A stretch of 64,000 nucleotides of DNA from Escherichia phage vB_EcoM_MM02. The position numbers and the translations under genes were made by a program. Shown one piece after another: positions 6,149 to 40,893 of the stretch (position 1 is the stretch's first letter; each line of letters begins with the position of its first letter). The stretch lies in the sequence record MK373784.1; one strand, given 5' to 3'. The notes beneath the pieces were generated by a model. That model did not search any database and was not told the origin of the DNA. It saw only the letters and a program-made list of their open reading frames with translations.

Positions 6149-6579
6149 TATTGTTCCTTAAAGTGAGCTTTCAACATTTGATACAAAGACCATGCCTGGT
6201 CGTTATTTTCGATAGTAATCGTCATCACCGGAAATTCAGACAATTCATCAAGTTCACCAGAATCTTGCTCTTCGGACGCTTGATATGGATTTCCAACTTC
6301 GTCAAAGAATTCTGCTTCATTCGTGGAGAGCCAGATAAAGTTTTCATCAAGGATATCACCGCCTGTTGCGTATCCAACCGTGCCAGTAGATGTCACAATT
6401 TTAGTAGGACGACCAAGATGGTCAACATCTAATACTTTAAATGGTTCCATGCCAAGACGTCGTGCATAAATCCCATTATCAGTGTGGTCTTTAATAAACT
6501 CTTCTTGGGCACGTTTATCTTTAAATTGGTACCATGAGTTAACGCGGAATTTATTAGCCATTAGTAAGTTTCCTTCCAA
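6148..6579 (-). CDS. hypothetical protein
   Basis: 143-aa ORF. Confidence 0.4.
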
Positions 6580-6833
6580 TAAGTTGTACCATTTTCAGTG
6601 ATTTCACGGAAGATACCATAGATAGGCATTTCATCGCCGAGTTTTTCGTAAACGTAAACCACTTCAGTGTAGCATAAAAATTCAGTCCAGTTTTTCTGTA
6701 CAACAACTAAATCAGGATTAAACAGAACATCTTCAAACTCATCGATGTTTGAATCAGTAGTTACGTTTTTAATGATTTGACGTTTCATAATATTCTCCTC
6801 TTGTTTTGATAGGTCTATAGTATCATAGACCAT
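6561..6833 (-). CDS. hypothetical protein
   Basis: 90-aa ORF; promoter-like element just upstream (approx. 6800-6850). Confidence 0.35.
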
Positions 6834-6845
6834 AGTTGTTGTACA

Positions 6846-7370
6846 TCATTTTAGCAAAATAAAATCAACTTGTTCTGCCAATGAACGTCTAAACATTAAT
6901 TGACAACTTCCGAGGATGAAATCAGGTGCTTCATAGACCGCGATGTAGTATCCTTTAGCTTTCAAGAGTTCAACATCCACCTGGTCATCAAACCATGCAT
7001 AAACCGCGTCAACACTTTCAAATCCAAAATAGAACCCTTGAGCCCAATCTTCACTCAATTCAAATGCGTGCTCAATTCTATAGTATCTTAAGATATTTTG
7101 TTCAAGGAGTTTGTCTTCATTTACTGTAGGACGATTAGGGACATTATAGTTGTCGCCGTGATGGTAGAAGTTACCTGAGATTATTCCATGTTTATCAAGG
7201 AACTCCCATGTTTCTTCAGAGTTGTCGGTGCCCGACCAACCGTATGGCGAACGAGGTTCTTTATTCCAAGAGGTTTCCCAAATTCTGACGGCTTTACCGT
7301 CTTCGATAGCAATTCCTGGTAATGATTCACGTTGAGTACAAAAACTACGTTCTACGCGGTAAACTAACAT
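6846..7370 (-). CDS. hypothetical protein
   Basis: 174-aa ORF; GAGGAG RBS and promoter cassette upstream. Confidence 0.4.
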   Translation of the reverse strand: MLVYRVERSFCTQRESLPGIAIEDGKAVRIWETSWNKEPRSPYGWSGTDNSEETWEFLDKHGIISGNFYHHGDNYNVPNRPTVNEDKLLEQNILRYYRIEHAFELSEDWAQGFYFGFESVDAVYAWFDDQVDVELLKAKGYYIAVYEAPDFILGSCQLMFRRSLAEQVDFILLK

Positions 7371-7394
7371 ATTATTCTCCTCTGGTTGATATGG

Positions 7395-7425
7395 TTATAA
7401 TATCAAAACCAGAGGAGAAGTAAAC
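7395..7425 (-). promoter_or_regulatory. sigma70-like early promoter (GTTTAC, 17 bp, TATTAT) inside an inverted repeat
   Basis: Reverse complement of gtaaac at about 7420-7425 and tataata at about 7396-7402; 9-bp inverted repeat (cctctggtt / aaccagagg) flanks the -10 and overlaps the GAGGAG RBS. Confidence 0.45.
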
Positions 7426-7429
7426 TACT

Positions 7430-7849
7430 TTATGCAAAAGATGCTTGGCTATATCCTTTGATTTGGAATTCAGGAACTACCATGAACTGTCCGGCGAAAA
7501 CGATGTTATAAAGCTTAACACCATCTTCAACCCATTGGTCTGAAATAAAACCAGCGACTTGATTCGTTGTCCATGGAGACCCATCAGTTGCGGCAGCAAT
7601 AGTAAATTCATGGTCTTTTACAACTAAAACTGACCTGCACAGTTTCCATTTGAACGCTTTTTCTTCTGGTTCAATGAACTGGCTTGAGACGTAACCAATG
7701 TTACCATTAACATCTCGAACTTTAACTTCGTTACGTCCAAAAACCGGATCACTCACAGAAAGAACTTCAACCAACTTCCCGGCAACTTTAGAGCGAGAAG
7801 CAACAGATACATATACGTAATCACCTGTAGAGAGATTTACAATATTCAT
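7430..7849 (-). CDS. hypothetical protein, member 1 of a tandem paralog triplet
   Basis: 139 aa; C-terminal ...VAGFISDQWVEDGVKLYNIVFAGQFMVVPEF shared with the next two ORFs. Confidence 0.5.
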   Translation of the reverse strand: MNIVNLSTGDYVYVSVASRSKVAGKLVEVLSVSDPVFGRNEVKVRDVNGNIGYVSSQFIEPEEKAFKWKLCRSVLVVKDHEFTIAAATDGSPWTTNQVAGFISDQWVEDGVKLYNIVFAGQFMVVPEFQIKGYSQASFA

Positions 7850-7858
7850 AATAATTCC

Positions 7859-8323
7859 TTAAGCTTTACGAGGAGACACATAGCGAGTGATTTCAGATTC
7901 TTTAACAACTCGGAAGTCACCTAAGAATACGATATTGTATAACTTTTCACCATCTTCAACCCATTGGTCGCTAATGAAGCCACACATAGTACCAGTTTTG
8001 CTTGGATAACCGTATTCATCGATGAAGTCAAATTCTTTATCAGTCTGGAATTCAACACCTTTACACAAGGCCCATTTGAACTGTGTAGTAGGCTCAACGA
8101 TATCGCTTGAAGCAAAGTGGGCACTTACACGAGTTTCCAAGAATTTAGGACTTACATAGGCGAACTGAGTTTCAGTTTTTCCAGAACTGGGAATGATTCG
8201 AACTTTAACTTCTTTAATACGGCCTATGCCATTAGTACGAAGTCCTACCACTTCAACCAGCTTTCCTGCAGCTTTAGAACGAGACGCTGTCGATACACGT
8301 TTAATTTCACCAATATTAATCAT
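7859..8323 (-). CDS. hypothetical protein, member 2 of a tandem paralog triplet
   Basis: 154 aa; C-terminal ...CGFISDQWVEDGEKLYNIVFLGDFRVV; N-terminal ...SRSKAAGKLVEV like member 1. Confidence 0.5.
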   Translation of the reverse strand: MINIGEIKRVSTASRSKAAGKLVEVVGLRTNGIGRIKEVKVRIIPSSGKTETQFAYVSPKFLETRVSAHFASSDIVEPTTQFKWALCKGVEFQTDKEFDFIDEYGYPSKTGTMCGFISDQWVEDGEKLYNIVFLGDFRVVKESEITRYVSPRKA

Positions 8324-8354
8324 ATTTTTTTCTCTCTTTGTTTAAGTTGAATTC

Positions 8355-8384
8355 ATTATACTCCATCCATCCTTGGATGTAAAA
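8355..8384 (-). promoter_or_regulatory. early-promoter cassette, variant copy of the attatactcca...ccttgg...gtaaa repeat
   Basis: attatactccatccatccttggatgtaaaa; -10 TATAAT and -35-like TTTTAC on the minus strand. Confidence 0.4.
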
Positions 8385-8386
8385 TA

Positions 8387-8881
8387 TTAATTAAGAATAT
8401 TAACTACTGCACTACGTGGAACTACACTAAAATCACCTGCGTGAACAACGTTCAGAAGTTCAACACCGTCTTCAATCCACTGATCAGTTACCCATCCACT
8501 CACTGGACCTGCGAATGGACGTCGAATTGAAACAGCTTTACACAACAAATCAGTAGGCTCAATAGGCTTAATCAGAGTACCGTACATACAAGCGATATCC
8601 ATATCAATACAGATGTCTTTAACGGGTTCTACTTCTTCAATCAACAATTCAAAGTCAGTGCTTGGAAGGGCGGTAGTAGAAATTGTACCGTGTGAATTTT
8701 TAATTTCTAAGAATAACCAAGGGCCTTCAGCTTGTTTGATGAAGTTAACAATAGTGAAACTATTACCTTGAGTGGCACCTAAAATTTCACAAAACTTTTC
8801 ATAAGCTCGCACTGAAGCACCGTACCAGTTGATTTGTTTTTCGTCTTTCAGGATGTAAGTAGCCGTAGTATTGATATTCAT
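8387..8881 (-). CDS. hypothetical protein, member 3 of a tandem paralog triplet
   Basis: 164 aa; C-terminal ...SGWVTDQWIEDGVELLNVVHAGDFSVVP. Confidence 0.5.
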   Translation of the reverse strand: MNINTTATYILKDEKQINWYGASVRAYEKFCEILGATQGNSFTIVNFIKQAEGPWLFLEIKNSHGTISTTALPSTDFELLIEEVEPVKDICIDMDIACMYGTLIKPIEPTDLLCKAVSIRRPFAGPVSGWVTDQWIEDGVELLNVVHAGDFSVVPRSAVVNILN

Positions 8882-15269: not shown

Positions 15270-15791
15270 TCAGTAACCATTATCCTGGCGTTCAAAGTTG
15301 TGTTGGTTTTTCAAGTAGTAAAGTTTGAAGATTTCTTCAGCAGAAAGACCCAGACCTTGGAACATGTTCAGAACGAAGTGCAGAATATCAATCATTTCGA
15401 ATTTAATTTCGAGCTGGTCTTCAGGAGACAGTTCATCAATACGACGATTACGATATTCAGCATGTTGTGCTTTCCATGGCTTCCATACACTGCTGGCAGC
15501 TTTTTCACCGTTGGACATACCACCAAGTGAAGTCAGCAGTTCACGGAATTCATCATCAATATAATCTTTCTGATTACGCAGCCAATCAACAACATCGCCA
15601 GCAGTAGCCAATTCATCAGGATGTTTGTTATGTTCAGGCTTGTCATTTGCCAGACGAACCTGTAAAGATTTCTGCATATCAAGCATTACCTGCAGTGGGT
15701 CTTTATCTTCGTGAATCAGAGCATTAAAATAAGCTTCTTCTGCTTTATCAACACCAGAAATAAGTTGTGAACATTCGTTAAAGTGCGCCAT
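15270..15791 (-). CDS. 56: dCTP pyrophosphatase (MazG-like), gene 56
   Basis: Track start is a TTG 5 codons upstream; ATG at about 15791 has RBS AAAGGAAAAATAATG; about 173 aa; position between soc and 61 as in T4. Confidence 0.65.
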   Translation of the reverse strand: MAHFNECSQLISGVDKAEEAYFNALIHEDKDPLQVMLDMQKSLQVRLANDKPEHNKHPDELATAGDVVDWLRNQKDYIDDEFRELLTSLGGMSNGEKAASSVWKPWKAQHAEYRNRRIDELSPEDQLEIKFEMIDILHFVLNMFQGLGLSAEEIFKLYYLKNQHNFERQDNGY

Positions 15792-22260: not shown

Positions 22261-22623
22261 TTAAAAGAATTTAAATTTTTTCTTGGTCCGTTCATTAAAA
22301 GCTTGTTGTACTTGCATTGTAACACATTTTTCAACATGTGGTGCAAGTTCTGCTTTTCTGTCCTGGTCAAGAACTGCAAAGTCCATTACGATTTTACCAT
22401 CAACCCAGTCTAGTTTTGTAATATAGACTATATGATGGGAACCGTCTTCAAGTGTAATCAGAATCTCTTGAATGACATTTTCCATTGCTGAACGGACAAT
22501 TTTAAGAGATTCATTAAACACTCGTTCTTTGCGAATGTCCTCCCCTTCCGAAGAAGGGGATTCATCAACGATTTCTAGATTTAAATCATCGAGATTATTC
22601 ATCGAAATCTTCCATTTCGTCAA
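22261..22623 (-). CDS. hypothetical protein (gene 40 position)
   Basis: 120 aa, between 41 and uvsX as T4 gene 40; no motif. Confidence 0.4.
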   Translation of the reverse strand: MTKWKISMNNLDDLNLEIVDESPSSEGEDIRKERVFNESLKIVRSAMENVIQEILITLEDGSHHIVYITKLDWVDGKIVMDFAVLDQDRKAELAPHVEKCVTMQVQQAFNERTKKKFKFF

Positions 22624-23767
22624 GGTCGTTTTCTATATCTGCTGCAGATGGAGCATCAGAAGTTTTAACCGGAACTTTAGTTGTTGCTTTGCAATTAATA
22701 AGGTCATTAACAGCGTCATCAACTTCTTTAATAGAAGAGATAGCACCTAGTTTATATTTAGTTTCAATTGCGTCACGGAAAGGTTTGTGTTTAAACAAAG
22801 GTCCCCAGAATTCTACACAATCAGTAGCTTTAGCACGCCATGATTTTTCTTCACGAATCATTTCACCTGTTTCTTCGTCAAGGAATTCGCGAGCATACCA
22901 ACCGGCTTTAGGCTTAACTACAAAACCAATTTCAGTTGCCATTTCTAACAAGCCACTGAATGGGTCAATACCGCCATCAAAATTAACCGTGATCGGGAAA
23001 GTAGATTTCTCTTTAACTGTGCGAGATTTTTCTGCTTTCAACGTGAAGTCATAACCGGTCAATTCTGTACCTTCTTTAACCTGACGTTTAGAGATAAAGA
23101 ATACAGTGTTAGCAGAGTAAAGAATACCTGTACCACCACCCATAATCTCTTTAGGATATAGTCCGCCGATTTCCATTGCGGTATGGTTAATTGCAACACA
23201 CGGAATATCTTTAATAGTCAGATACGGGGTCACAATGCGGAACAGAGATTTAAGTGCCTTAGCACGAGACATATCACCTACAACTTTCTCGTTCAACGCA
23301 TCTTCGGTTTCTTTCTTAGATGCAGTATTACCGATTGAATCGATAAAGATAATAACTTTATCACCGCGTTCAATCGCGTCAAGCTGATTAGTCATATCAA
23401 CTTTAAGTTGTTCGACAGATTGAATCGGAGTATGAACTACACGGTCTAAATCAACACCCATTGAACGAAAATAAGATTCTGAAGCACCGAATTCTGAGTC
23501 ATAAAACAAACAGATTGCATCTTTATATTTCTTCATATATGCTGCAACCATGGTCAGCCCAAACAATGTTTTAAAGTGTTTAGAAGGAGCAGCAAAAATA
23601 GTTAAGCCTGATTGCAACCCGGCATTCAGTGCACCACCTAGTGCAATATTCAACATCGGAATACGAGTAGGGACTTCATCACGATTATTAAACAGCTTAG
23701 ACTTAGTCAAGTCTGCAGTCATTTTAGAAGTAGAAGCTTTAATCAGACGAGATTTTAAATCAGACAT
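22595..23767 (-). CDS. uvsX: UvsX recombinase (RecA/Rad51 family)
   Basis: 390 aa; RecA-like core with P-loop GLTIFAAPSKHFKT; size and synteny. Confidence 0.9.
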   Translation of the reverse strand: MSDLKSRLIKASTSKMTADLTKSKLFNNRDEVPTRIPMLNIALGGALNAGLQSGLTIFAAPSKHFKTLFGLTMVAAYMKKYKDAICLFYDSEFGASESYFRSMGVDLDRVVHTPIQSVEQLKVDMTNQLDAIERGDKVIIFIDSIGNTASKKETEDALNEKVVGDMSRAKALKSLFRIVTPYLTIKDIPCVAINHTAMEIGGLYPKEIMGGGTGILYSANTVFFISKRQVKEGTELTGYDFTLKAEKSRTVKEKSTFPITVNFDGGIDPFSGLLEMATEIGFVVKPKAGWYAREFLDEETGEMIREEKSWRAKATDCVEFWGPLFKHKPFRDAIETKYKLGAISSIKEVDDAVNDLINCKATTKVPVKTSDAPSAADIENDLDEMEDFDE

Positions 23768-23865
23768 TGTATTTTTCCATAGGCATCATTATATTTTACT
23801 CATGTTTAAAAGATAAGATGATTATATACTAAGGGTTATACAGCATTTAAAACTTTAAATGGCTC

Positions 23866-24414
23866 TTAACGAGCCCATTTGATAATTTCTGTAATCAAAT
23901 AATTACGTTCGCTTGCATTAAATCCTATAACTTTGTTAGCACCATCATGATTAAGTAATTGATACGTTTGGATTTTGTTATGAATTGCAAACTCTTCAAA
24001 ATGTGAAATGACTGTATTAAAACCGAATGAAGACAAAGTAATAAGGTCGTCTTCAAAACTTTCAGTCATTTCGTTACGTGTTAAAATAATTGTGAACACA
24101 TCATGGTTTTGGCAAAGACGAACATAATCCTGTTCATAAACGTCAAGAACCGAGTCCGTATCTTGTCGAATACGTCCATAAACCCAGTTACTAATATATC
24201 CACGGTCTAACAGATAAATCTTAGTAGGGTCTAAATAATTCAACATCGTTTCGAAGCAGCCAACTTCATTTCGAGACTTAACATCGAAACGCCCATCAAC
24301 TGTTCGTTTAGGGAAATCAATCTTTACATATCTTTCACTAATTTCCATTATGTCATTAATGAAAGTTGTTTTACCAGCATTATCTGGGCCATCTACTAAA
24401 ATAATTTTAGCCAT
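23866..24414 (-). CDS. P-loop kinase (nucleoside/nucleotide or sugar kinase-like)
   Basis: 182 aa; Walker A ILVDGPDNAGKTT and LDRGY motif as in dNK/TMPK or gluconate/shikimate-kinase-type P-loop kinases; occupies the T4 beta-gt slot. Confidence 0.5.
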   Translation of the reverse strand: MAKIILVDGPDNAGKTTFINDIMEISERYVKIDFPKRTVDGRFDVKSRNEVGCFETMLNYLDPTKIYLLDRGYISNWVYGRIRQDTDSVLDVYEQDYVRLCQNHDVFTIILTRNEMTESFEDDLITLSSFGFNTVISHFEEFAIHNKIQTYQLLNHDGANKVIGFNASERNYLITEIIKWAR

Positions 24415-24415
24415 T

Positions 24416-25315
24416 TTATTCCTCGATTACGACATCTTCATATTTAGGTATATTATACGGCGAAGAAATTAAAGCATTAAAGTAGATGAACTCACCAAGA
24501 CCTGGATGGAATACTTCTTCAGGATTTTCGAAATATTGAATCTTCGGACGTCCTTTAAGAATTTGATAGTACTCAGTTTTAGTTGGTTTAAAAATTCGAA
24601 TCAGCGCTTCTTCAGGATACTTATTTCTGTCGAAGCTATTATTTGGATCGGTTATATAAAGCGGTTGACCTAATTGAATTGCGCATTCAACAACTTGTTC
24701 AAAACGATAGCATGGGTCACTAATTCGAAATGGATGAAAAATACCATCTAGATAAATAGGAGCCAAATCACCTACAAGACGCTGCATGATGGAAGGACGT
24801 ATAACTTTCTGCGTTACGATAATCTTATTACCATCTGCACCTGCGTTAACCAGCACTTCTTTTTGACGTTCATTCAACACAGTAGTTTGAAGTGAACGAT
24901 TAACCGACAACATATCAGTTTTTAAGAATTCGTCAATATAAAAACGTGGTTTATTAGGGTCTGCAGTGATATTGAAATTGAATTCCACATCAAAAGCGCC
25001 GTCATATCCAGTGATATCTGTGATTAGAAAATCACAATCATAATAAGCAATTAATGAATCAACTACAAATTCATTTTCAGACCAGAAATATTTACGAGTG
25101 TTATACGCGTTATCTTTATACCATAATGGAACAAACTTAAATTCTGGAAAAAGACGTTCGCATTCTTTAATATCAGATGCATTACGTGGATATGTAATCA
25201 CATCACCCGGATTAGCACGGTGCAAATGAAGTTGGAAGTTGCCATCCTTAAGGATAGCATACTGTCCAGTTTCATAAGACCGCATACTCAAGATTGGTAC
25301 GCGGAAAATAGCCAT
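24416..25315 (-). CDS. hypothetical protein (beta-gt slot, no similarity recognised)
   Basis: 299 aa; translationally coupled with neighbours. Confidence 0.4.
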   Translation of the reverse strand: MAIFRVPILSMRSYETGQYAILKDGNFQLHLHRANPGDVITYPRNASDIKECERLFPEFKFVPLWYKDNAYNTRKYFWSENEFVVDSLIAYYDCDFLITDITGYDGAFDVEFNFNITADPNKPRFYIDEFLKTDMLSVNRSLQTTVLNERQKEVLVNAGADGNKIIVTQKVIRPSIMQRLVGDLAPIYLDGIFHPFRISDPCYRFEQVVECAIQLGQPLYITDPNNSFDRNKYPEEALIRIFKPTKTEYYQILKGRPKIQYFENPEEVFHPGLGEFIYFNALISSPYNIPKYEDVVIEE

Positions 25316-26031
25316 TAGTCAAGGAATCCTTTAACATAATCAAAATCACGTTCAAACACATGGGCACTTACCATGGTATGAGTATAAACACCAACTTCTA
25401 CACCGCATTCGTTAGCGATATAATGAAGTAATTTTCCTTGGAGATAAAAATCCAACTGCATAACAACAGCACAGTTCTGGGAACGCATATGACAGTGGGT
25501 ATAAAGCTTACCATCACGAATATAATAAGTCACTGAGTCAGTACATGGATATTCAAGCGTTTCGTCCGAATCAAGCAAAGCCTGATCAGAACTTTCTAGA
25601 ATTTGGAACACAACTCTTCGAGAGTTAGGCTTCTCTTTAAGTTCTTTTAGAAGAGCTGGTAATTGGGCCACAATGCGAGGACCATAGAAAGTGTTGAAGT
25701 TCGCCGGCAAAACATCTGATTTTGGTTTAGAAATAAATTTAGCGACATTAGGATATGCCTTAAACGCTTCTTCTGCATCAGTACCACCAGAAATCATAAA
25801 CTTCCAGAAGTCTTCGGCATATTCATAAGAGATGCGGTTAATACGTGGGTCGGTCATTTTGAATGATGATGGAGTGTCAACAACTACTGTCATAGACCCA
25901 ATTTCATTACAACGTCCAATACGAGAATCAGTTACGAATTCCGGGTTTTCTAAAATTTCACGATTGACTGCTTTAAATGCGGTTTGAAAATCTGCGGCTT
26001 TGATATATTTCATTGTGTTATGTTTTCCCAT
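25315..26031 (-). CDS. 42: dCMP hydroxymethylase (thymidylate-synthase fold), gene 42
   Basis: 238 aa; TS-family features (...LEYPCTDSV... with candidate catalytic Cys, C-terminal HVFERDFDYV); size and position as T4 gp42. Confidence 0.7.
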   Translation of the reverse strand: MGKHNTMKYIKAADFQTAFKAVNREILENPEFVTDSRIGRCNEIGSMTVVVDTPSSFKMTDPRINRISYEYAEDFWKFMISGGTDAEEAFKAYPNVAKFISKPKSDVLPANFNTFYGPRIVAQLPALLKELKEKPNSRRVVFQILESSDQALLDSDETLEYPCTDSVTYYIRDGKLYTHCHMRSQNCAVVMQLDFYLQGKLLHYIANECGVEVGVYTHTMVSAHVFERDFDYVKGFLD

Positions 26032-26073
26032 GTTTACCTCAATACAATTTATTATATACTCAATTCGTAAAGC

Positions 26074-26313
26074 TTATTTGAATTTCTTGACAATGTTGAT
26101 ATAACGTAAAGCTTCAGCATCGATACTTCCAAGAACACTATGAAGAAATGCATCAGCGTAGTATTCCAATTGAACAGGTTCTTTAATCACTTTAGCCGCT
26201 TTGGTTTCAAACAGGCCCATCAGGGCCTTTTTAAGAATTTGTTCGTTAGTGTTCAGTTTAATAGTCAAAATCTCTTCATTAAGTTGGTGGTTAAAAGTTT
26301 TTCTAGAAATCAT
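26074..26313 (-). CDS. hypothetical protein
   Basis: 79-aa ORF. Confidence 0.35.
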   Translation of the reverse strand: MISRKTFNHQLNEEILTIKLNTNEQILKKALMGLFETKAAKVIKEPVQLEYYADAFLHSVLGSIDAEALRYINIVKKFK

Positions 26314-27488
26314 TCCGGGTACCTCAAAGCGTCATCAGAGTTAGTTATATCAATAATAGATATAGAGTTTTCTGCTAACCCGTTTTTAGACAATTGACGT
26401 TTATAATATCTTTCACAATATGTACACGTCGTCCCGCAGATTTCATTAGCACAATCGAAATCTGGATGTCTGAACCACCTTTTTTCTAAAAAGCCATCTA
26501 ACAAAGAGGTTTCAATATTTACTGTATGTGAAAACTCAGTTTCGTTTTCAAGAGTGAAAATAGTCTCTAAAGGCTTCCACAGTTCTAACAAATTACCTTC
26601 AAACTTTTCAGAAGCGTATGCTTCAAGAACTTTCAAAATGTAGTCTGTGCTACCTGTACGTCCTGAAACTTTGAATTGAGTGATACCAATATCATTATAA
26701 AGTTTCAAATCTTGAGGACGAACAAAACGAGTTCTCAACCAGTTAAATGGGTCTGTATCACGAGCTTTAATACAGTGCTGCATTGGATAACCGTTTAAGG
26801 ATTTAGCATCGTCAGCTGTAACATCAGTACTATGGAAAATATAGCAAGAGTCACGATAGCTACAATGTGTTGTATACCCTTTACCAGCATTAGAACAGAA
26901 CTCATTTACAAGAACTTCAAATATTATATTGTTCTTATTGCAAAACTCTGCTGCACGCTTCAGGAAAGAAACTGAACGGTTCTTATGAATTCCGCAGCAG
27001 ACCTTTTTGATATTATATTGGTCATGCAAGTATTTGATTTGAGTTACAGCATCGACATGTAGAATTGTTGAAACTTCAATCTCAATATCTTTATTGACTT
27101 CACGAACAATTTCCATAACAACAGGGTTAGCGATAGTAATACGCCATACGCCTATTGACCAAAGATACTGAACATAATCCTGAATAGCTTTCTTCTTCCA
27201 CTCAACTAGTTCTCTTTTTGAACCAGGATTTATCGTGTTGAGTGTATAGTTAAAGCAAATACCTAATTCGTTACAACGTTTAACGTAGTCTTCTAACATC
27301 TTTTTGTCAACGTCAGGAAGCCTAAAATCAGGTCTGGCTGCTACAAAAGCCATTTTTCTTGTAGAGCCGTATACTTCGTTTATCAAGCTATTAGGATAAG
27401 TTTTATTGAGCTCTACGATTTTATCAAGAAGAGCTAAATCAAAATTCGTTCCAATTTTAAAAGTATTCATTTTTTTTTTGCATCTCAC
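26310..27488 (-). CDS. Cys-rich protein of unknown function with C-terminal CxxxCxxC cluster
   Basis: 392 aa; cysteines at ...EFCSNAGKGYTTHCSYRDSC... and C-terminal CANEICGTTCTYC; family not assignable from sequence alone. Confidence 0.45.
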   Translation of the reverse strand: MRCKKKMNTFKIGTNFDLALLDKIVELNKTYPNSLINEVYGSTRKMAFVAARPDFRLPDVDKKMLEDYVKRCNELGICFNYTLNTINPGSKRELVEWKKKAIQDYVQYLWSIGVWRITIANPVVMEIVREVNKDIEIEVSTILHVDAVTQIKYLHDQYNIKKVCCGIHKNRSVSFLKRAAEFCNKNNIIFEVLVNEFCSNAGKGYTTHCSYRDSCYIFHSTDVTADDAKSLNGYPMQHCIKARDTDPFNWLRTRFVRPQDLKLYNDIGITQFKVSGRTGSTDYILKVLEAYASEKFEGNLLELWKPLETIFTLENETEFSHTVNIETSLLDGFLEKRWFRHPDFDCANEICGTTCTYCERYYKRQLSKNGLAENSISIIDITNSDDALRYPE

Positions 27489-27529
27489 GTTAATTGATGC
27501 GATGGCTTTTGCAGGTCTTACTTAAATTA

Positions 27530-27931
27530 TTATAGATTAGGTTTATATGATTTAAATGTTTCGAATCCGCCTTTATTCATAAGAGCTTTGAATTCGTCAG
27601 GACGCATAGCTTTGTCGTCGATAATCCAATCATATACTGGTTTATGTGTTAGCAAATTATGGTACTTCAAACCAATGTTTTCCAAGTTCTGAATCAGACT
27701 TGGGAGAATGTCAATTGCTATACGTCCAGGACCTACTGACTTCATACCGCGAGCAGTGTAAAGCGTTATGGTATGCCCTGCATCATACAGGGCATTAATG
27801 GCAGACACCATTTCGACGTCCGGTTTGAAGTTCACGTAATCACGATTGTTATTCCACTCTGTTATACAATCATCGACATCAAAACAAAGATTAAGCATGT
27901 TTTCTACACGGTGCATTAGATTCGTTCCCAT
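27530..27931 (-). CDS. HAD-superfamily phosphatase (KdsC-like small sugar-phosphate phosphatase)
   Basis: 133 aa; motif I FDVDDCIT (DxDx[T/V]), Thr motif ITLYTAR, C-terminal K...DD (HKPVYDWIIDDK). Confidence 0.55.
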   Translation of the reverse strand: MGTNLMHRVENMLNLCFDVDDCITEWNNNRDYVNFKPDVEMVSAINALYDAGHTITLYTARGMKSVGPGRIAIDILPSLIQNLENIGLKYHNLLTHKPVYDWIIDDKAMRPDEFKALMNKGGFETFKSYKPNL

Positions 27932-29601
27932 TGATGAGTGATATCGCCACCGATTGGACGATAGGAAACACCAGTTTCTTTATCAGTTAGTACCCATTTA
28001 CCAGGATTTTTTGTAATCAGAGTAGCCGTTACAGGTTCTGCTACGTCATAACTAATAGAGCCGTCTTGAAGTACACGGCCCATGTTACGTAATTGCTTAG
28101 TCAGAAGTTCCATACCTTTATAATATGCGGCTACCGCTTTAAGTGGATTATTCTTGAAATAACCACCTAATGCAATCCAGATAATTGCTACAGCCAAATG
28201 ATGATACTCGTTAAACGAACTCATCTTTCCATATTTGTAAACTAATGGATTGATGTTAATAGTCACATTACAAGTTGTTTCGTCAATAGTAAACTGTCCC
28301 CAGGTCGGATTAGCGTTGAATTCATCATAACCTGAAACAGCATAAAGCACTTTAGCTTCATCATACAATTTTGGCCCATAAATCTTGGTTTCGCCAAAAT
28401 ATCCACGAGGGTCGATAAACTTGACTTCGCCGTTATCAGTAATCATAGTATTACTGAAGTTCGGGTCACCATGAATAACAGAGTACTGTCCCTGAGAACG
28501 GTTATGATAACGAATAAGGTGTTCTAAAGCTTGTTTCAACATTGGCTTCAGACGTCCAATCTTAGTGTAGTTCACATGTGTGATTTTACCAAATGAATCA
28601 ATCAATGGTTGAATGCTTTCACAACGATCAATAACTTTCGTATAGAATTCTTTAGTGAAATCACGACGAACAGTTTCAGGACTTACAAAATAAGTGTCTG
28701 TGCTGAATTTCAGTGCATCTAAAATTGCATCAACAATTTGTGGACGAGCAAGACTTGATTTGGATTTAATATATTCAAATGCCGGCTTACCTTTAATGCG
28801 TTCCATTTCAAAGTTATTTTCATTAACAGAAACTAACTGAGGAACTGAATCTGATTTCACTTTAAGATACCATGAAATCTCATCTTTCTGAAGAGCTCGA
28901 CCCTGTTCGGTTAATGCGAATTTAGTTACAGTTTCTTCACCAATTTCAACTGCATTAAAACTACGATTAAGTTCACGAACTTCATGAGCTTTTTCAAGTT
29001 TAGGCATATCACCTAAATCAATTAGATTCATAAGCTCTGATTTATTGAATGCGCTGCCGTAAAGGAATTCTACGAAATCGCGTCCTTTGCAGTATTCATG
29101 AATTTCCTCATCGGTAGAACCCATATAGAATTCCCAGTCTTTGAACTGATAAATTCCTACAACATTACCACCTGTTGAACCTACGTTAGTGATATTTTCA
29201 CCGTCGAAATTATATCGACATTCGTCACCCTTAACATAGATTGCGTTAACATTCCAAGACCATGAACCAAAATCGGGAATAATATCACACCAGTTAACAA
29301 TTACATTATGGCCGTCTAAATCTTTGTGTAATTTAGCAAGAGCATAAGCAGAACCGTACGCTTCATCAACTGTACGAATAGTCACATTGAACCCTTCTTG
29401 CTCACAATAAGCTCGAACAGTTTCAGCAAATTTTGAATGAACTACTACAATAATTTCATCTGCGCCAAGGTCAGAATAAATTGTATACAAATTGCTCAGA
29501 ATAGTGTCTTGTTTATAGTTAACAAGCACCTTAGGAATATGATGCGTTATTGGATATAAACGAGTCGCCAGTCCAGCACCAAGAATAACAGCTTTTTTCA
29601 T
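27916..29601 (-). CDS. bifunctional sugar-1-phosphate nucleotidyltransferase / anomeric sugar kinase (APH-like)
   Basis: 561 aa; N-terminal NTP-transferase signature AVILGAGLATRLYP; C-terminal kinase motifs HGDPNFSNTMI...FIDPRG (Brenner HxDxxxxN plus DFG-like), as in AmgK/NahK-type kinases. Confidence 0.65.
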   Translation of the reverse strand: MKKAVILGAGLATRLYPITHHIPKVLVNYKQDTILSNLYTIYSDLGADEIIVVVHSKFAETVRAYCEQEGFNVTIRTVDEAYGSAYALAKLHKDLDGHNVIVNWCDIIPDFGSWSWNVNAIYVKGDECRYNFDGENITNVGSTGGNVVGIYQFKDWEFYMGSTDEEIHEYCKGRDFVEFLYGSAFNKSELMNLIDLGDMPKLEKAHEVRELNRSFNAVEIGEETVTKFALTEQGRALQKDEISWYLKVKSDSVPQLVSVNENNFEMERIKGKPAFEYIKSKSSLARPQIVDAILDALKFSTDTYFVSPETVRRDFTKEFYTKVIDRCESIQPLIDSFGKITHVNYTKIGRLKPMLKQALEHLIRYHNRSQGQYSVIHGDPNFSNTMITDNGEVKFIDPRGYFGETKIYGPKLYDEAKVLYAVSGYDEFNANPTWGQFTIDETTCNVTININPLVYKYGKMSSFNEYHHLAVAIIWIALGGYFKNNPLKAVAAYYKGMELLTKQLRNMGRVLQDGSISYDVAEPVTATLITKNPGKWVLTDKETGVSYRPIGGDITHQWERI

Positions 29602-29782
29602 GTTGAAGTCCTCATTGGTAAGTAGGAGTATTGTACACTATTCTAGTTAAAGCATTCATACTTTGCTTGTAGTCCAATCATAATCCATCCAATTACAAGT
29701 GTTGGAATCATTACTGGAGCCGTTAAGCTCCAGTAGATAGTCATGACAAGCATCAATAGTAAAAGTCCTATTGTTATTGCTT

Positions 29783-30418
29783 TCATTGTTCGCCTCGTAA
29801 CATGGCACCTAGTGCACCGCCTGGATGGAACTTAAGGAAATCATTAGAGGTAAATCCACGTTCAGACGAAAGGTTGATAGCGAACGTATCGATAAGCGCT
29901 AACAACAATGTAGTAGACATTGTCGGAGCTAAAGAGTTCTCGTCAACTTCTACCGCGATACCGGTGCAGAACGTATAATCAAAAAGAGCTTCGTATTCTT
30001 GTGGAATGTCAGGGTTACAATGTAACAGAATCTGTTTAACCTGAGGACGAATCATACGAAGATGTTTAGCAACACCTATCATTTCTTCAGTCTTACCAGA
30101 ACGACTGATGTGAACTAATACATCATTAGGTGCAATAAATCCTGCGTCACCATGAGAATAATGCCCGGTGTTCAAATACATGCTAGGAATACCTAGTGAA
30201 GCAAAAGTCTCGGAAGCTTTAGTTGCGATATTAGCATTCTTACCAACACCTGTAATAATTACCCGGCTTTCATAATTACTAAGTCCAGGGCGTCGAAGAG
30301 TTTCTAGAATAGCATTATAACGAGCAGGGTTTTGACTAATTACTTTAGCCATAGTGGCAAGAGATGAAGCTTGTTTTACGATTGCGTCAATAGCGATAGT
30401 AATAGGAGTAGTTTTCAT
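29783..30418 (-). CDS. SIS-domain sugar-phosphate isomerase (arabinose-5-phosphate isomerase KdsD/GutQ-like)
   Basis: 211 aa; SIS motifs ITGVGKNANIATKASETFASLGIP and HISRSGKTEE; no CBS domains. Confidence 0.7.
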   Translation of the reverse strand: MKTTPITIAIDAIVKQASSLATMAKVISQNPARYNAILETLRRPGLSNYESRVIITGVGKNANIATKASETFASLGIPSMYLNTGHYSHGDAGFIAPNDVLVHISRSGKTEEMIGVAKHLRMIRPQVKQILLHCNPDIPQEYEALFDYTFCTGIAVEVDENSLAPTMSTTLLLALIDTFAINLSSERGFTSNDFLKFHPGGALGAMLRGEQ

Positions 30419-30458
30419 ATTTCTCTCATTTAATTAGTTGGCCGTCCTTGGCATTATA

Positions 30459-33170
30459 TCAAAAATCAAACATATCGAACAGAGATGCTTTCTTCTCGTA
30501 ATCGAGTTTAGCTGCTGATGTGAATCCTTCAAGTGGTTTAATAAATGTCTTCTCAAGGAGAACAGTGTAGTCCATCCAATGAAGTACATCGTCTTTAATT
30601 AAATCTGTGATTTCAGTACCAGAAGGCCATGCGATACATTTATCACCGAATGGGTTTCCTTCACGTAAAGGCAGAACATATACTTTTTCACCTTCTACAA
30701 CTTGTGGTGCATCAATATTACCTTTGATAGCTCGGTTATATGTCAGAATTCCACGAATATGGAACGGACATTTAGGACCAGGGAATCCACCGACATCATA
30801 TTTAGCAATGTTATTCGCAGAAGATACCGACGCGATGCTAATATAATTCAATTGACGGAATTCTTTTTCAAACTCTTTAAAATATTCTTGTAATGATTCT
30901 TCACCTTCTTGAAGCATACGACGAATACATTCTTTAAGAGCTTTCTGTACTGCTTTAGGGGTCGAAGATTTCTGAGTCTCTAGACCCATGATTTTGAGTT
31001 TAGGCTCAGCGTAACGAGTGCCTTCCATATCCCACACGTTTAATGCATAACGTTTCTTACCAGTCCAGAATCCACCAATACCTTTAGAACCGAGCGGAGG
31101 ACCAGCGATAGCTTCTCGGTCCATGAACATTAAGTGTTGTTTATTGTTCATGTATTCACACATTTCACGGAAACCTTTATCAATAGCAGGTTCCATACGT
31201 TCACGTGCAAACTTATCTAAGAAGTCTACCCAATGGTTGGTATCACGGAATTTAGATTCACCAACCTTATCAATAATTTTATCCGCAGATACGTAAATGG
31301 AGTCTGTATCACCATAAAGAACGAAAGCTTCACCTTCTGTACCACAAACTTCATTCAGATATTCATTAACTTTACGTTCAATCCACTGTAAAGCCATTTG
31401 CCCGAATGTTGTGATTGCAGTAGCATTACGCAAATCATAATAACGGAACCAAACGTTGCCAAGTGCACCATAAAGTGAGTTGATGAGCAATTTACGGTTA
31501 ATTTGTGCAGTCATACCTGCAACTTCAGTACGTTGAGCTCTAAACAACATTTCATTAAGAGATTTAGCAGACAACTTTTTAATCTTTTCTTTAATCTCAT
31601 CGCTGAAGTCGAAACGATAATCAACATCTAATGGTTCGTCAACAGAAAGATTAGGATTATGCAATGCCTCTTTAATTATTTCACCATTACGTTGAGCTGC
31701 AAGCATGTAACCTTTATGTTCTTTACGTTGATTAAAGACCTTAGTGATTTCAGTTGGAACTACACCATCACGGTCTTTATAATACATCATGCCGTTAGGA
31801 GAACAACTGTACACATCTGAAGGACGTTCAGCGATTGCGTTAATATAATCATGTAATGGAGCTACTTTAAACGTTCCTGCTATTGTTTCTGGGCTAATAT
31901 TCACTTGGCGAATGATGCTTGGATACAGAGATGTAAGGTCGAAACTCATTACATATTTGTATCGATTTGGAATAGGTTCCTTAACAAAAGCGCCAGGATA
32001 AGGTTGAACCGGGTGAGAACGACCTTGTGGAATCACCTTGTTCTGCTCTTTAAGGCTATTAAAAATAATAGCATCCCATGTTTTAATTGGGCTAAACACA
32101 GATTGAATCTGTATCTTAGCATAATAACCCATGTCCAAACTCAAGTTGATGAACTGACGCTTAGCATCAATTTGCAATACACGATACACATCGATAATGT
32201 TATAAGAAATATATCGTTGGTGATTGCTTTCACGAAGTTTAGAAATAGGGCCGTCATATTTCAGTTTACCAACGTTCAATTCAAATTCTGAAATGTAATC
32301 CAGAGAATACGACGGTTGATTGGTAAAAGAGAATTTTTTGTAAAGGTCAATGTAATCAAGAACAGAGATACCGAACAATGTAATGATTTCACGAGAACCA
32401 TACATGTTTTCGATAACTTTAACACGAGTTTTACGATGCGGCGATAAACGTTTCGCAGTAGATTCGCCAAAAATATTCTTGATTCGGTTATACACATATG
32501 GAATATCAAATGACTCAACGTTCCATCCAGTCAAAATGACAGGAGTTTTCTGTTGCCAGAAGTTGAGATATTCCATCAACAATTCTTTTTCGTTATCGAA
32601 CGGCATATAAATGATTTTATCGATAATTTCAGATGGAACTTCATCACCGCCTTGTTCTTGAAGCTTAGCAGCGATTTCAATAGACCATTCTTCTACATTA
32701 CCATATGGAGAATTCAATAGATCAAATACGTAGAACCTGTCGTCAATTGAGTCATAATGGGTGATAGCATCAATCGGATGTTTTGCTTGTGACGGCTCAG
32801 GGAACCCGTCCGGAGATGTTACTTCGATGTCGAAGTTAGCCACACGAATTTTTGTATGGTCGTATTTGATTTCATAGTTATAAGTGTCAGACAAATACGC
32901 CAATTTGAAATCGTCCATGCCAAGTGCTTCAAGTCCGATATCTTCCATGCGTTTAATCCATTGGGAGGCATCACGCATATTAGCGAACAACTTACGAGTA
33001 CACGGCTTACCGTAGATATCGAAATATTTCGTAGCCTGACTTTCCGGACAATGAGCAAACAGTGATGGTTTATATTCTACTTCACGAGTACGTTCACGGC
33101 CATTAGAATCGATGTAACGTTCAAAAATTGAATCACCAATCTGTTCAACCGTTAAGTAAAATTCTTTCAT
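30459..33170 (-). CDS. 43: family B DNA polymerase with 3'-5' exonuclease, gene 43
   Basis: 903 aa; Exo motifs FDIEV, YNIIDVY; Pol motifs DFTSLYPSII, KILINSLYGALG, YGDTDS; sequence matches my memory of the RB69-type polymerase. Confidence 0.97.
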   Translation of the reverse strand: MKEFYLTVEQIGDSIFERYIDSNGRERTREVEYKPSLFAHCPESQATKYFDIYGKPCTRKLFANMRDASQWIKRMEDIGLEALGMDDFKLAYLSDTYNYEIKYDHTKIRVANFDIEVTSPDGFPEPSQAKHPIDAITHYDSIDDRFYVFDLLNSPYGNVEEWSIEIAAKLQEQGGDEVPSEIIDKIIYMPFDNEKELLMEYLNFWQQKTPVILTGWNVESFDIPYVYNRIKNIFGESTAKRLSPHRKTRVKVIENMYGSREIITLFGISVLDYIDLYKKFSFTNQPSYSLDYISEFELNVGKLKYDGPISKLRESNHQRYISYNIIDVYRVLQIDAKRQFINLSLDMGYYAKIQIQSVFSPIKTWDAIIFNSLKEQNKVIPQGRSHPVQPYPGAFVKEPIPNRYKYVMSFDLTSLYPSIIRQVNISPETIAGTFKVAPLHDYINAIAERPSDVYSCSPNGMMYYKDRDGVVPTEITKVFNQRKEHKGYMLAAQRNGEIIKEALHNPNLSVDEPLDVDYRFDFSDEIKEKIKKLSAKSLNEMLFRAQRTEVAGMTAQINRKLLINSLYGALGNVWFRYYDLRNATAITTFGQMALQWIERKVNEYLNEVCGTEGEAFVLYGDTDSIYVSADKIIDKVGESKFRDTNHWVDFLDKFARERMEPAIDKGFREMCEYMNNKQHLMFMDREAIAGPPLGSKGIGGFWTGKKRYALNVWDMEGTRYAEPKLKIMGLETQKSSTPKAVQKALKECIRRMLQEGEESLQEYFKEFEKEFRQLNYISIASVSSANNIAKYDVGGFPGPKCPFHIRGILTYNRAIKGNIDAPQVVEGEKVYVLPLREGNPFGDKCIAWPSGTEITDLIKDDVLHWMDYTVLLEKTFIKPLEGFTSAAKLDYEKKASLFDMFDF

Positions 33171-39880: not shown

Positions 39881-40093
39881 CTATCCACATAGTACACCGT
39901 ACAGAGGCTCATTTGAACTTTTAAATCGAATGGGCTTGTACGTAATAGTTCCTTCGGCTTTAGCTTTATCATAAGACTCTTTAAAATGTCTCATTCTTTC
40001 TGCTTTGCCTTTACGGATTTTATCGAAATTTTCAGAAGTCGGGATGTTCGTCATGCATAAGCACCTCTCAGAAAATGCCTAAATCAATTTCTC

Positions 40094-40315
40094 TCATCGT
40101 TTCCACCATTTCTTAACTTGAAATGAATCGACCCACACGAGTTGTTTTGGGTCTGCCTTTACAATAGGCGGACAAATTTCTGTAATAGAACCGTCGTGAT
40201 ATTCCTTTTCAGAAATTTTAACACAAAGAGGACCTCCCAATTTAAGGGTGAACCCTGCGTTCAGCTTCAGACGTTTAAACTTTGTTTGAACTAGCGCCAT
40301 TAATGATGTCCTCAA
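40094..40315 (-). CDS. hypothetical protein
   Basis: 73-aa ORF in the slot where T4 has alpha-gt. Confidence 0.3.
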   Translation of the reverse strand: MRTSLMALVQTKFKRLKLNAGFTLKLGGPLCVKISEKEYHDGSITEICPPIVKADPKQLVWVDSFQVKKWWKR

Positions 40316-40598
40316 TAGCCTGACGAGTAGTAACCCACTGGATTTTAATTAACTTGTCATTGTATGGTTGTCGTAGAATATCCCGAGATTTCTTAATAGC
40401 ATATTCGTAAGCTTCGAAGTTGTTTTGAATTGCTGCTTCTTGAGCATGAGCATAAAGACGGTTTAGTTCAAAACGATTCTTTTTAAGAATCTTTTCGGAT
40501 TTTTTACGTGCTTCAGCTTCATTTTTCTTTTGGATTTCTTGTAGCATTTTAGCTACTGCATCTTCTGCTTCTTTATTTTCAATAATCTCGGTAGTCAT
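40275..40598 (-). CDS. hypothetical protein
   Basis: 107-aa ORF. Confidence 0.35.
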   Translation of the reverse strand: MTTEIIENKEAEDAVAKMLQEIQKKNEAEARKKSEKILKKNRFELNRLYAHAQEAAIQNNFEAYEYAIKKSRDILRQPYNDKLIKIQWVTTRQAIEDIINGASSNKV

Positions 40599-40599
40599 A

Positions 40600-40893
40600 T
40601 TATCTCATTAAATTAAAATAAAAACGTCCATCCTCTTCAATACAGAACTCATATTCAACTGGAGTCCCGTTTATCGAAAATGACACGTCATGTGGGTTCA
40701 AAGGGTCGATGTCAAAATTAATTTTAAATTCACGACCCAACAGTTTTACCAAATAAGGGATTGCTTCGTCAAAAGGTTCTTCTAAGTAGTTAGAGATGTC
40801 AATTGTCATCCTCATATAAAAAATCCAAACTAGGCGAATCGCTAACAACTTCCTTCTTTTCAGCCCCAGGAGCTTTATAAGCGGATTCTTCAT
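40600..40893 (-). CDS. hypothetical protein (true start probably an internal ATG near 40809-40815)
   Basis: 97-aa track ORF overlapping the 3' end of gene 55. Confidence 0.3.

Follow-up and report, generated by a model that had tools for sequence, protein, structure and literature searches.

A predicted glycosyltransferase and a thymidylate-kinase-like protein in the beta-glucosyltransferase slot of a Mosigvirus genome

The gene pair and its setting

The window analysed here is a 64,000-nucleotide (nt) stretch of DNA from Escherichia phage vB_EcoM_MM02 (MK373784.1), and the subject is a pair of genes at 23866..25315, encoding a P-loop kinase of 182 amino acids (aa) and a protein of 299 aa. 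Judged by sequence, the window is from a Mosigvirus (RB69 group). A 1.7-kb query from the region was 98.6-99.3% identical at the nucleotide level to many Mosigvirus genomes, and 98.9% identical to NicPhage (H17). We consider it probable (about 0.7) that the two genes are core genes of an arabinosyl-5-hydroxycytosine hypermodification module of the Mosigvirus type. The cluster, the chemistry of the DNA and the predicted roles of both genes have already been published, in 2025-2026; the transferase and the kinase are the least-characterised steps of that published pathway. The pair and its immediate flanks are as follows.

22595..23767: uvsX, on one flank of the pair
23866..24414, minus strand: 182-aa P-loop kinase, with GPDNAGKTT at residues 9-17 and LDRGY at residues 69-73; orthologue of RB69 gp45
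24416..25315, minus strand: 299-aa predicted GT-B glycosyltransferase, the predicted base-proximal arabinosyltransferase; orthologue of RB69 gp46:47
25315..26031, minus strand: ThyA-like 238-aa gene, 'gene 42' by position, on the other flank

In the T4 record the corresponding gene order is uvsX-segA-b-gt-42, and the pair therefore occupies the T4 beta-gt slot, as the first-pass annotation had proposed. Its open reading frames (ORFs), motifs and translational coupling were also as described there. The junction from the 299-aa gene to the kinase gene is GAGGAATAAaATG, with a spacer of 1 nt and a Shine-Dalgarno-like GAGG inside the upstream gene; direct inspection of the sequence showed that the ThyA-like and 299-aa genes share 1 nt at 25315, reading TAATG. 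These two junctions make the ThyA-like, 299-aa and kinase genes a translationally coupled string. Further upstream lie a polymerase, a SIS isomerase, a 561-aa enzyme, a HAD phosphatase and a U32 gene, arranged as in the RB69 gp55-gp45 cluster, so that the suggested tie between the pair and a sugar-nucleotide module was borne out by RB69-type UDP-arabinose genes. A scan of 23600..30500 for promoters and terminators found sites no more numerous than in shuffled sequence.

Relatives of the 299-aa protein were found in 348 phage records (24-100% identity) and 138 protein clusters, and those of the kinase in 27 clusters, which argues that both genes are real. Public records of near-identical genomes disagree about the kinase, which is a 'hypothetical protein' in GenBank and a 'thymidylate kinase' in RefSeq re-annotations. 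The ThyA-like gene is variously a 'thymidylate synthase', a 'dCMP hydroxymethylase' or a 'deoxycytidylate 5-hydroxymethyltransferase'. None of these public names fits the published 5-hydroxy-dCMP synthase activity (dCMP, deoxycytidine monophosphate).

Fold, family and linkage

The 299-aa protein is named 'hypothetical protein' in every public record among the matches listed, and corresponds to PHROG 3891, 'unknown function'. It matched no Pfam or NCBIfam family, Glycos_transf_1 and Glyco_transf_4 included. A 45-sequence profile of the family matched no chain in the PDB, and hhalign gave no relation to T4 beta-GT, T4 alpha-GT or the window's own gp3-type transferase; the idea that the protein might be a diverged beta-gt homologue was thus not upheld. 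Because the sequence and profile searches were empty, its assignment as a predicted glycosyltransferase rests mainly on the fold, the role being backed by genomic context. A single-sequence AlphaFold2 prediction had a predicted local distance difference test score (pLDDT) of 36.8 and was discarded. The model obtained from the family alignment, with a pLDDT of 94.8, has two Rossmann-like domains and an interdomain cleft, ie a GT-B fold, which answers the choice between GT-A and GT-B that had been put to structure prediction.

The closest structures to the model are retaining GT4-type enzymes, with MshA at the top in Foldseek, and the match values agree with those given for RB69 gp46:47 in Table 1 of PMC13326640. 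Identity to the GT4-type enzymes sucrose-phosphate synthase (6kih), BshA, MshA and PimA is 7-12% (5-15% among the matches listed), and all four are longer than the 299-aa protein by about 60-100 residues. As candidates for the nucleotide-sugar binding residues expected in the C-terminal domain (Arg/Lys for phosphates, Glu for ribose), R197, K246 and H270-P271-G272 are invariant in the family alignment and E275 fits the consensus GLxEF; in the model R197, K246, H270-G272 and E275 sit where elements of the C-domain begin. The EX7E motif is not evident and HPGLGEF is found instead, at residues 270-276. The model belongs to the same fold class as T4 beta-GT (GT63) and alpha-GT (GT72), although hhalign detects no sequence homology to either, and the earlier description of the protein as 'unrelated' is in that respect misleading. 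The T4 beta-gt slot would still hold a DNA-sugar transferase of the T4 fold class, from a different, GT4-like lineage.

The RB69 reference splits this gene into ORFs of 116 aa and 182 aa, whereas the ORF is unbroken in the window, as it is in hundreds of relatives; the RB69ORF047c and ORF046c entries in BFVD are the two halves of the 299-aa ORF, at 99% and 98% identity respectively. The split has been blamed on a sequencing error (PMC13326640), and the intact ORF, compared by sequence, is consistent with that view. The 'arabinosyltransferase 1' of that paper (RB69 gp46:47, DLP3 gp79) resembles the 299-aa ORF in position, neighbours and fold matches (6kih, 3c4q), and its function is a prediction there also.

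The 182-aa kinase matched PHROG 761, 'thymidylate kinase', with an E of 1.8e-45. It had no Pfam match above threshold: the gathering score of Thymidylate_kin was not reached and only AAA_14 appeared, at E 0.04. A distant member of the family, in locus L054, does pass the Thymidylate_kin gathering score (34.5 vs 27). A 19-sequence profile matched thymidylate kinases in the PDB only weakly. With a 66-sequence profile, hhalign gave a probability of 89% (E 2e-6) against E. coli Tmk, and of 96% against an approximate human TMPK sequence. These alignments span the P-loop, FPxR and DR(G)Y motifs and cover only about the N-terminal 85 residues. The P-loop, G9-P-D-N-A-G-K-T-T17, is mostly invariant across 19 family members, while F34-P35-K36-R37 and D70-R71-G72-Y73 (with one inserted residue) align to FPER and VDRY of this human sequence and to GDRH of E. 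coli Tmk. In the same, tentative alignment, the segment at the thymine-contacting Phe/Arg of cellular thymidylate kinases is a gap or consists of non-basic residues. The kinase thus has in common with the thymidylate kinases of PF02223 (E. coli Tmk, human TMPK, vaccinia A48R) a P-loop with Asp, FPxR and a DRY-like motif, and differs from them in the extra Gly of DRGY, its shorter length and the non-conserved base-contacting segment.

On its profile matches the 182-aa protein is a remote relative of thymidylate kinase. It is not, by the same kind of comparison, a deoxynucleoside monophosphate (dNMP) kinase of the T4 gp1 type, as gp1-type structures (1dek/1del) were not among the 40 PDB matches of the kinase profile at E <= 10. 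A sugar kinase had been the other candidate at first pass, to be decided by profile searches of gluconate/shikimate against dNMP kinase families. No gluconate or shikimate kinase family was matched and the sole consistent signal was thymidylate kinase, so that of the two proposed substrates, a sugar or a modified nucleotide, the sugar is rejected and a nucleotide is the prediction retained.

The genomic linkage of the pair was followed in 58 IMG/VR loci collected with the transferase profile and scored with local hidden Markov models; 51 of these have at least 1.5 kb on each side, and, as the loci are related by descent, the counts are of loci and not of independent events. The kinase gene lies within 7 kb of the transferase gene in 49 of the 51, mostly directly downstream; in loci of the Dhakavirus, Marfa and Proteus types it is relocated, with the HAD gene on one side and U32 or the ThyA-like gene on the other. 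A ThyA-like gene is within 7 kb in 47 of the 51 (directly upstream in 44) and a U32 gene in 21. With this linkage the kinase is unlikely to be the unlinked, ordinary dNMP kinase paralogue that had been held up as the refuting case. In small phages that are not T4-like the cassette runs in the order dUTPase_2-type NTP pyrophosphatase, Thymidylate_kin, transferase, U32, which argues for a pathway at the nucleotide level in phages without gp1 and is about the least that base replacement ahead of replication would need. Two fusions were found, each on a single contig where an assembly error is possible: a 550-aa ORF (L098, 2354..4003, 164-kb contig) joins the transferase (residues 9-333) to the thymidylate-kinase-like kinase (365-515), and a 551-aa ORF (L048, 6443..8104, 56-kb contig) joins a HAD phosphatase and the transferase. 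As the partners differ, the fusions indicate a shared pathway and not a shared substrate.

The pathway and competing readings

The DNA of RB69 was proposed in 2018 to contain arabosyl-hydroxymethylcytosine (arabosyl-hmC) (PMC6024577). That proposal has been superseded, and RB69 DNA is now known to carry mono- and di-arabinofuranosyl-5-hydroxycytosine (PMC13326640, PMC13390438); 5-ara-dC and 5-ara-ara-dC were found in NicPhage DNA by liquid chromatography and mass spectrometry (HPLC/MS; PMC13390438). The 'hmC-modification system' to which the 299-aa protein had tentatively been linked at first is accordingly to be replaced by 5-hydroxycytosine chemistry. The 5-hydroxyl is installed on dCMP by a flavin- and O2-dependent thymidylate-synthase homologue with D169N, the linkage of the base-proximal arabinose is alpha, synthesis of UDP-arabinofuranose (UDP-Araf) was demonstrated for the enzymes of phage HY126, and RB69 gp45 and gp46:47 are predicted to be a nucleotide kinase and arabinosyltransferase 1, respectively (PMC13326640). 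Given the 98.9% nucleotide identity to NicPhage and the 98-99% protein identity to RB69 ORF046c/047c, the DNA of the window probably carries arabinosyl-5-hydroxycytosine. The other genes that concern the pathway are listed below, with the ThyA-like gene given again for its function.

2520..3620, minus strand: 366-aa second arabinosyltransferase, orthologue of RB69 gp3/ORF003c; matches PDB 9iqz/9ir0, 'phage HY126 glycosyltransferase', E 9e-248
15270..15791, minus strand: 173-aa dCTPase, a T4 gp56-type all-alpha NTP pyrophosphatase; Pfam dUTPase_2, 1e-6
25315..26031, minus strand: 238-aa thymidylate-synthase homologue, 5-hydroxy-dCMP synthase according to PMC13326640; Pfam Thymidylat_synt, 4.5e-15
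26074..26313, minus strand: 79-aa ORF that overlaps the U32 stop codon; its conservation extends to L002, L008 and L015-L017
26310..27488, minus strand: U32-family protein, RB69 gp50; Pfam Peptidase_U32, 7.7e-11
27530..27931, minus strand: 133-aa HAD-type phosphatase, RB69 gp51, AfhF-like; NCBIfam TIGR01689 capsule biosynthesis phosphatase, 2.2e-13; role according to PMC13326640
27916..29601, minus strand: 561-aa bifunctional sugar-1-phosphate nucleotidyltransferase/sugar kinase, RB69 gp52:53, AfhE-like; role according to PMC13326640
29783..30418, minus strand: 211-aa SIS-domain arabinose-5-phosphate isomerase, RB69 gp55; Pfam SIS, 8.2e-10; role according to PMC13326640

The ThyA-like protein aligns over its full length with PDB 9iqc/9ir2/9iqu of phage HY126 (E 1e-159). 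It is 25% identical to T4 gp42, reading MRSQN...QLD against MRSND...RND of T4 (BLASTP), and has the D169N and N177D signature that defines the 5-hydroxy-dCMP synthase (PMC13326640). The 561-aa protein matches Pfam NTP_transferase at residues 3-99 (8.5e-10), with weak kinase-fold matches at 308-409, and the UDP-arabinose gene set (SIS isomerase, nucleotidyltransferase/kinase, HAD phosphatase) is complete in the window. RB69p028 is given as the dCTPase in PMC13326640.

The pathway preferred here is the published one. The present analysis bears on how the genes are built, on the transferase fold, on the kinase family and on linkage across genomes, while the DNA chemistry, the 5-hydroxy-dCMP synthase activity and UDP-Araf synthesis in HY126 come from the literature; which acceptor and donor the 299-aa enzyme uses, and which substrate the kinase takes, we infer. 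The gp56-type dCTPase would supply dCMP, which the ThyA-like enzyme would hydroxylate at C5. The resulting 5-hydroxy-dCMP would be converted to the diphosphate by a dNMP kinase and to the triphosphate by the host nucleoside diphosphate kinase, and then be incorporated by the phage polymerase. UDP-Araf would come from the products of three genes just upstream (isomerase, 561-aa enzyme, HAD phosphatase), and from it the 299-aa GT-B enzyme would transfer the first arabinofuranose to the 5-hydroxyl of cytosine in DNA; a second arabinose would be added by the gp3-like transferase. The 299-aa protein is thus the predicted base-proximal, ie first, arabinosyltransferase, in place of the second transferase or accessory factor that had been suggested.

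Several observations favour the transferase role. The retaining GT4-type matches imply a chemistry that fits the alpha linkage of the base-proximal arabinose. The gene lies directly downstream of the hydroxylase gene in 44 of the 51 loci. In the Thanatos cluster the transferase is the sole glycosyltransferase and the DNA is mono-pentosylated, while Acinetobacter phage loci encode it together with two gp3-type glycosyltransferases and the DNA of their relative DLP3 is tri-arabinosylated (PMC13326640 for both DNAs).

Several observations weigh against the assignment of both proteins. In the literature searched, which did not include He et al. 2026 and Mahler et al. 2025, no biochemical activity was found for the 299-aa protein or the kinase. 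Single DLP3 transferases, including the orthologue gp79, gave no arabinosylation of DNA containing 5-hydroxycytosine (5hoC), and the authors could not distinguish a first arabinosylation on the mononucleotide from one on DNA (PMC13326640). Thanatos TH1_063 is reported to form UDP-xylose from UTP and xylose-1-phosphate (PMC12838424). The transferase family is acidic, with a median isoelectric point (pI) of 5.15 and a net charge of about -10 compared with a pI of 9.05 for T4 beta-GT, which argues weakly against DNA binding. As for the kinase, RB69 gp159, the T4 gp1-type kinase, turns 5-hydroxy-dCMP (5hodCMP) into 5hodCDP in vitro and suffices for incorporation of 5hoC in E. coli (PMC13326640), so that the conserved thymidylate-kinase-like protein is not required for that step in RB69. 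In RB69 gp159 is a separate gp1 orthologue, and for the thymidylate-kinase-like gp45 and its DLP3 counterpart gp78, the 'nucleotide kinase', the paper names no substrate. On balance we lean slightly towards the 182-aa protein being the module's own 5-hydroxy-dCMP kinase. Phages that lack a kinase of the gp1 type could then not do without it, while in T4-like phages it would be partly redundant.

Some of these points would be met if glycosylation came before replication, ie if the 299-aa enzyme arabinosylated 5-hydroxy-dCMP, the thymidylate-kinase-like protein took arabinosyl-5-hydroxy-dCMP, which would be too bulky for a gp1-type kinase, and the sugar-bearing deoxynucleoside triphosphate (dNTP) were polymerised directly. 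The genes for hydroxylase, transferase and kinase overlap or abut in that order here, in Thanatos and in most loci, and the 550-aa ORF on its 164-kb viral contig joins the last two. A gp1-type kinase that handles 5hodCMP leaves the second kinase with no necessary substrate; single transferases were inactive on 5hoC-DNA, with the mononucleotide route left open by the authors (PMC13326640); and the acidic character of the transferases (pI about 5.1, compared with 9.05 for T4 beta-GT) is weak evidence for a nucleotide as acceptor. The negative transferase result may, however, reflect an inactive preparation, and the kinase-transferase fusion is one metagenomic contig, another joining the transferase to a HAD domain. 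Several genera have the kinase apart from the transferase, between the HAD and the U32 or ThyA-like genes (L004-6, L010-14, L019, L024-25). T4 glucosylation and the third arabinosylation in DLP3 take place on DNA (PMC13326640). For these reasons we regard glycosylation of the nucleotide as unlikely. We know of no phage that glycosylates a nucleotide ahead of polymerisation and, if this did occur, it would to our knowledge be the first phage to polymerise a sugar-bearing dNTP.

Less probable still is that the 299-aa protein is a UDP-pentose pyrophosphorylase which makes the activated sugar. The suggestion comes from TH1_063, the 'UDP-xylose pyrophosphorylase' of Thanatos, a 300-aa protein with 48% identity to the 299-aa protein and the same order of ThyA-like gene, this gene and kinase. 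Purified TH1_063 with UTP and xylose-1-phosphate gave UDP-xylose by liquid chromatography-tandem mass spectrometry (LC-MS/MS), and no transfer to DNA, dCMP, dCTP or cytosine was seen (PMC12838424). Those acceptors have no 5-hydroxyl, however, so the absence of transfer is uninformative, and a co-purified host uridylyltransferase would be a simple alternative source of the product. The 561-aa protein of the cluster already has an NTP_transferase domain, its HY126 counterpart makes UDP-arabinose (PMC13326640), and nucleotidyl transfer does not fit a GT-B fold.

Equally improbable is an ordinary thymidylate kinase that raises the supply of dTTP and is tied to the cluster by position only: the family and several RefSeq records ('thymidylate kinase') would allow it, but the gene accompanies the transferase in 49 of the 51 loci, which come from T4-like, jumbo and small phages alike, touches or overlaps a modification gene in almost every arrangement and, in the tentative alignment, has no match to the thymine-contacting Phe/Arg segment, and T4-like phages already phosphorylate dTMP with their gp1-type kinase. 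The context points to 5-hydroxy-dCMP or one of its derivatives as the substrate.

Neighbouring genes and the U32 protein

The T4 alpha-gt slot was compared in the same way. The T4 order here is 47-47.1-a-gt-mobB-a-gt.2..5-55. The first-pass annotation was right that the corresponding interval of the window holds only small ORFs, but they number four, not three, and extend beyond the 40094..40893 that it gave.

39881..40893, minus strand: four small ORFs, orthologues of T4 a-gt.2,.3,.4 and.5

Their identities to T4 a-gt.2 to a-gt.5 are 74%, 71%, 58% and 47%, respectively (BLASTP). a-gt, mobB and 47.1 are absent from the 47-55 interval, and no gene has been inserted there. The claim that the glucosylation genes were replaced is thus correct for the beta-gt slot; in the alpha-gt slot a-gt is simply missing. 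Retention of a-gt.2 to a-gt.5 where a-gt, mobB and 47.1 are gone indicates that their conservation is independent of a-gt.

The U32 gene at 26310..27488 adjoins the module and is a candidate for a prephenate-dependent, O2-independent cytosine C5 hydroxylase. Translation probably begins at the ATG of 'MNTFKIG', 18 nt downstream of the GTG that opens the listed ORF. The U32 family includes the O2-independent, prephenate-dependent hydroxylases UbiU/UbiV, TrhP (ho5U in tRNA) and RlhA (5-hydroxycytidine 2501 of 23S rRNA) (PMC10990095, PMC6599085, PMC5727448). Table 1 of PMC13326640 names RB69 gp50 only as a 'sugar or heterocycle reductase', and the text of that paper mentions neither U32 nor prephenate nor chorismate; in the searched literature (which, as above, excluded He et al. 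2026 and Mahler et al. 2025) no paper was found that links U32 to a 5-hydroxycytosine DNA pathway.

None of the 51 loci lacks both a ThyA-like and a U32 gene, and four are U32-positive with no ThyA-like gene even at E <= 10. Kinase-transferase-U32 clusters with no ThyA-like gene (L049, L050, L052, L054, L085-L102) come from small phages with DNA polymerase III alpha, jumbo phages and one T4-like contig; the L050 contig was covered over about 39.5 of its 49.3 kb. A scan with a U32 profile added further clusters of this ThyA-less kind: several kinase-transferase-U32 cassettes in contigs of about 44-49 kb, of which those checked encode DNA polymerase III alpha, and six jumbo contigs with U32-transferase-nucleotidyltransferase...kinase clusters.

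Chorismate mutase makes prephenate. A CM_2 chorismate mutase gene (Pfam 2.4e-10, above threshold) lies between the U32 and ThyA-like genes in at least 11 T4-like loci, either directly after U32 or after an ORF of the 79-aa type; its product is of the 79-aa type in size, up to about 130 aa. The loci are as follows.

L103, 4682..4921: chorismate mutase
L104, 4679..4918: chorismate mutase
L003, L007-L009, L015-L017, L020, L021, L024 and L025: chorismate mutase

They belong to Kanagawavirus, PEi20, Yersinia TG1, PM2, Serratia, EcS1 and Proteus-type phages; the Mosigvirus window has no mutase. Its own 79-aa ORF matched no family and is unrelated to the mutase that takes this position in other genera; the two occur together in L008 and L015-L017. 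On a 16-kb viral contig (L081), a DAHP_synth_1 protein (6478..8829, Pfam E 1.5e-41) follows a thymidylate-kinase-like kinase and U32, with no transferase within 7 kb. This protein may supply the shikimate/prephenate route as a DAHP synthase, or it may be a KDO8P synthase with arabinose-5-phosphate as its substrate.

Ten Cys are invariant in the alignment of phage U32 proteins. RlhA is the E. coli paralogue that aligns best with them, the alignment being a weak one (hhalign E 5e-4, 217 columns, including C-x5/6-C); neither hmmsearch nor BLASTP matched the phage family to RlhA, TrhP, UbiU or UbiV of E. coli. The U32 protein matched 221 phage records, mostly with Enterobacterales hosts, and Acinetobacter is outside the ten commonest names, whereas the transferase matched 57 Acinetobacter phage records. 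The correlation with host is imperfect, since Dhakavirus, a genus of E. coli phages, also lacks U32.

We tentatively propose, at somewhat less than even odds, that U32 is the oxygen-independent C5 hydroxylase of the arabinosyl-5-hydroxycytosine pathway. An idea we hold no more firmly is that the kinase and transferase may form the invariant core of C5-O-glycosylation modules with an interchangeable hydroxylase, either ThyA-like or a prephenate-dependent U32. With such a U32 enzyme the pathway could continue without oxygen in the gut, and phages that have kinase, transferase and U32 but no ThyA-like gene would depend on it alone for the 5-hydroxyl. If this is correct, 5-hydroxycytosine in DNA would have a second origin that needs no oxygen, and prephenate-dependent hydroxylation by U32 proteins would extend from quinones and RNA to DNA precursors, with relevance to therapeutic gut phages and to the enzymatic synthesis of modified DNA.

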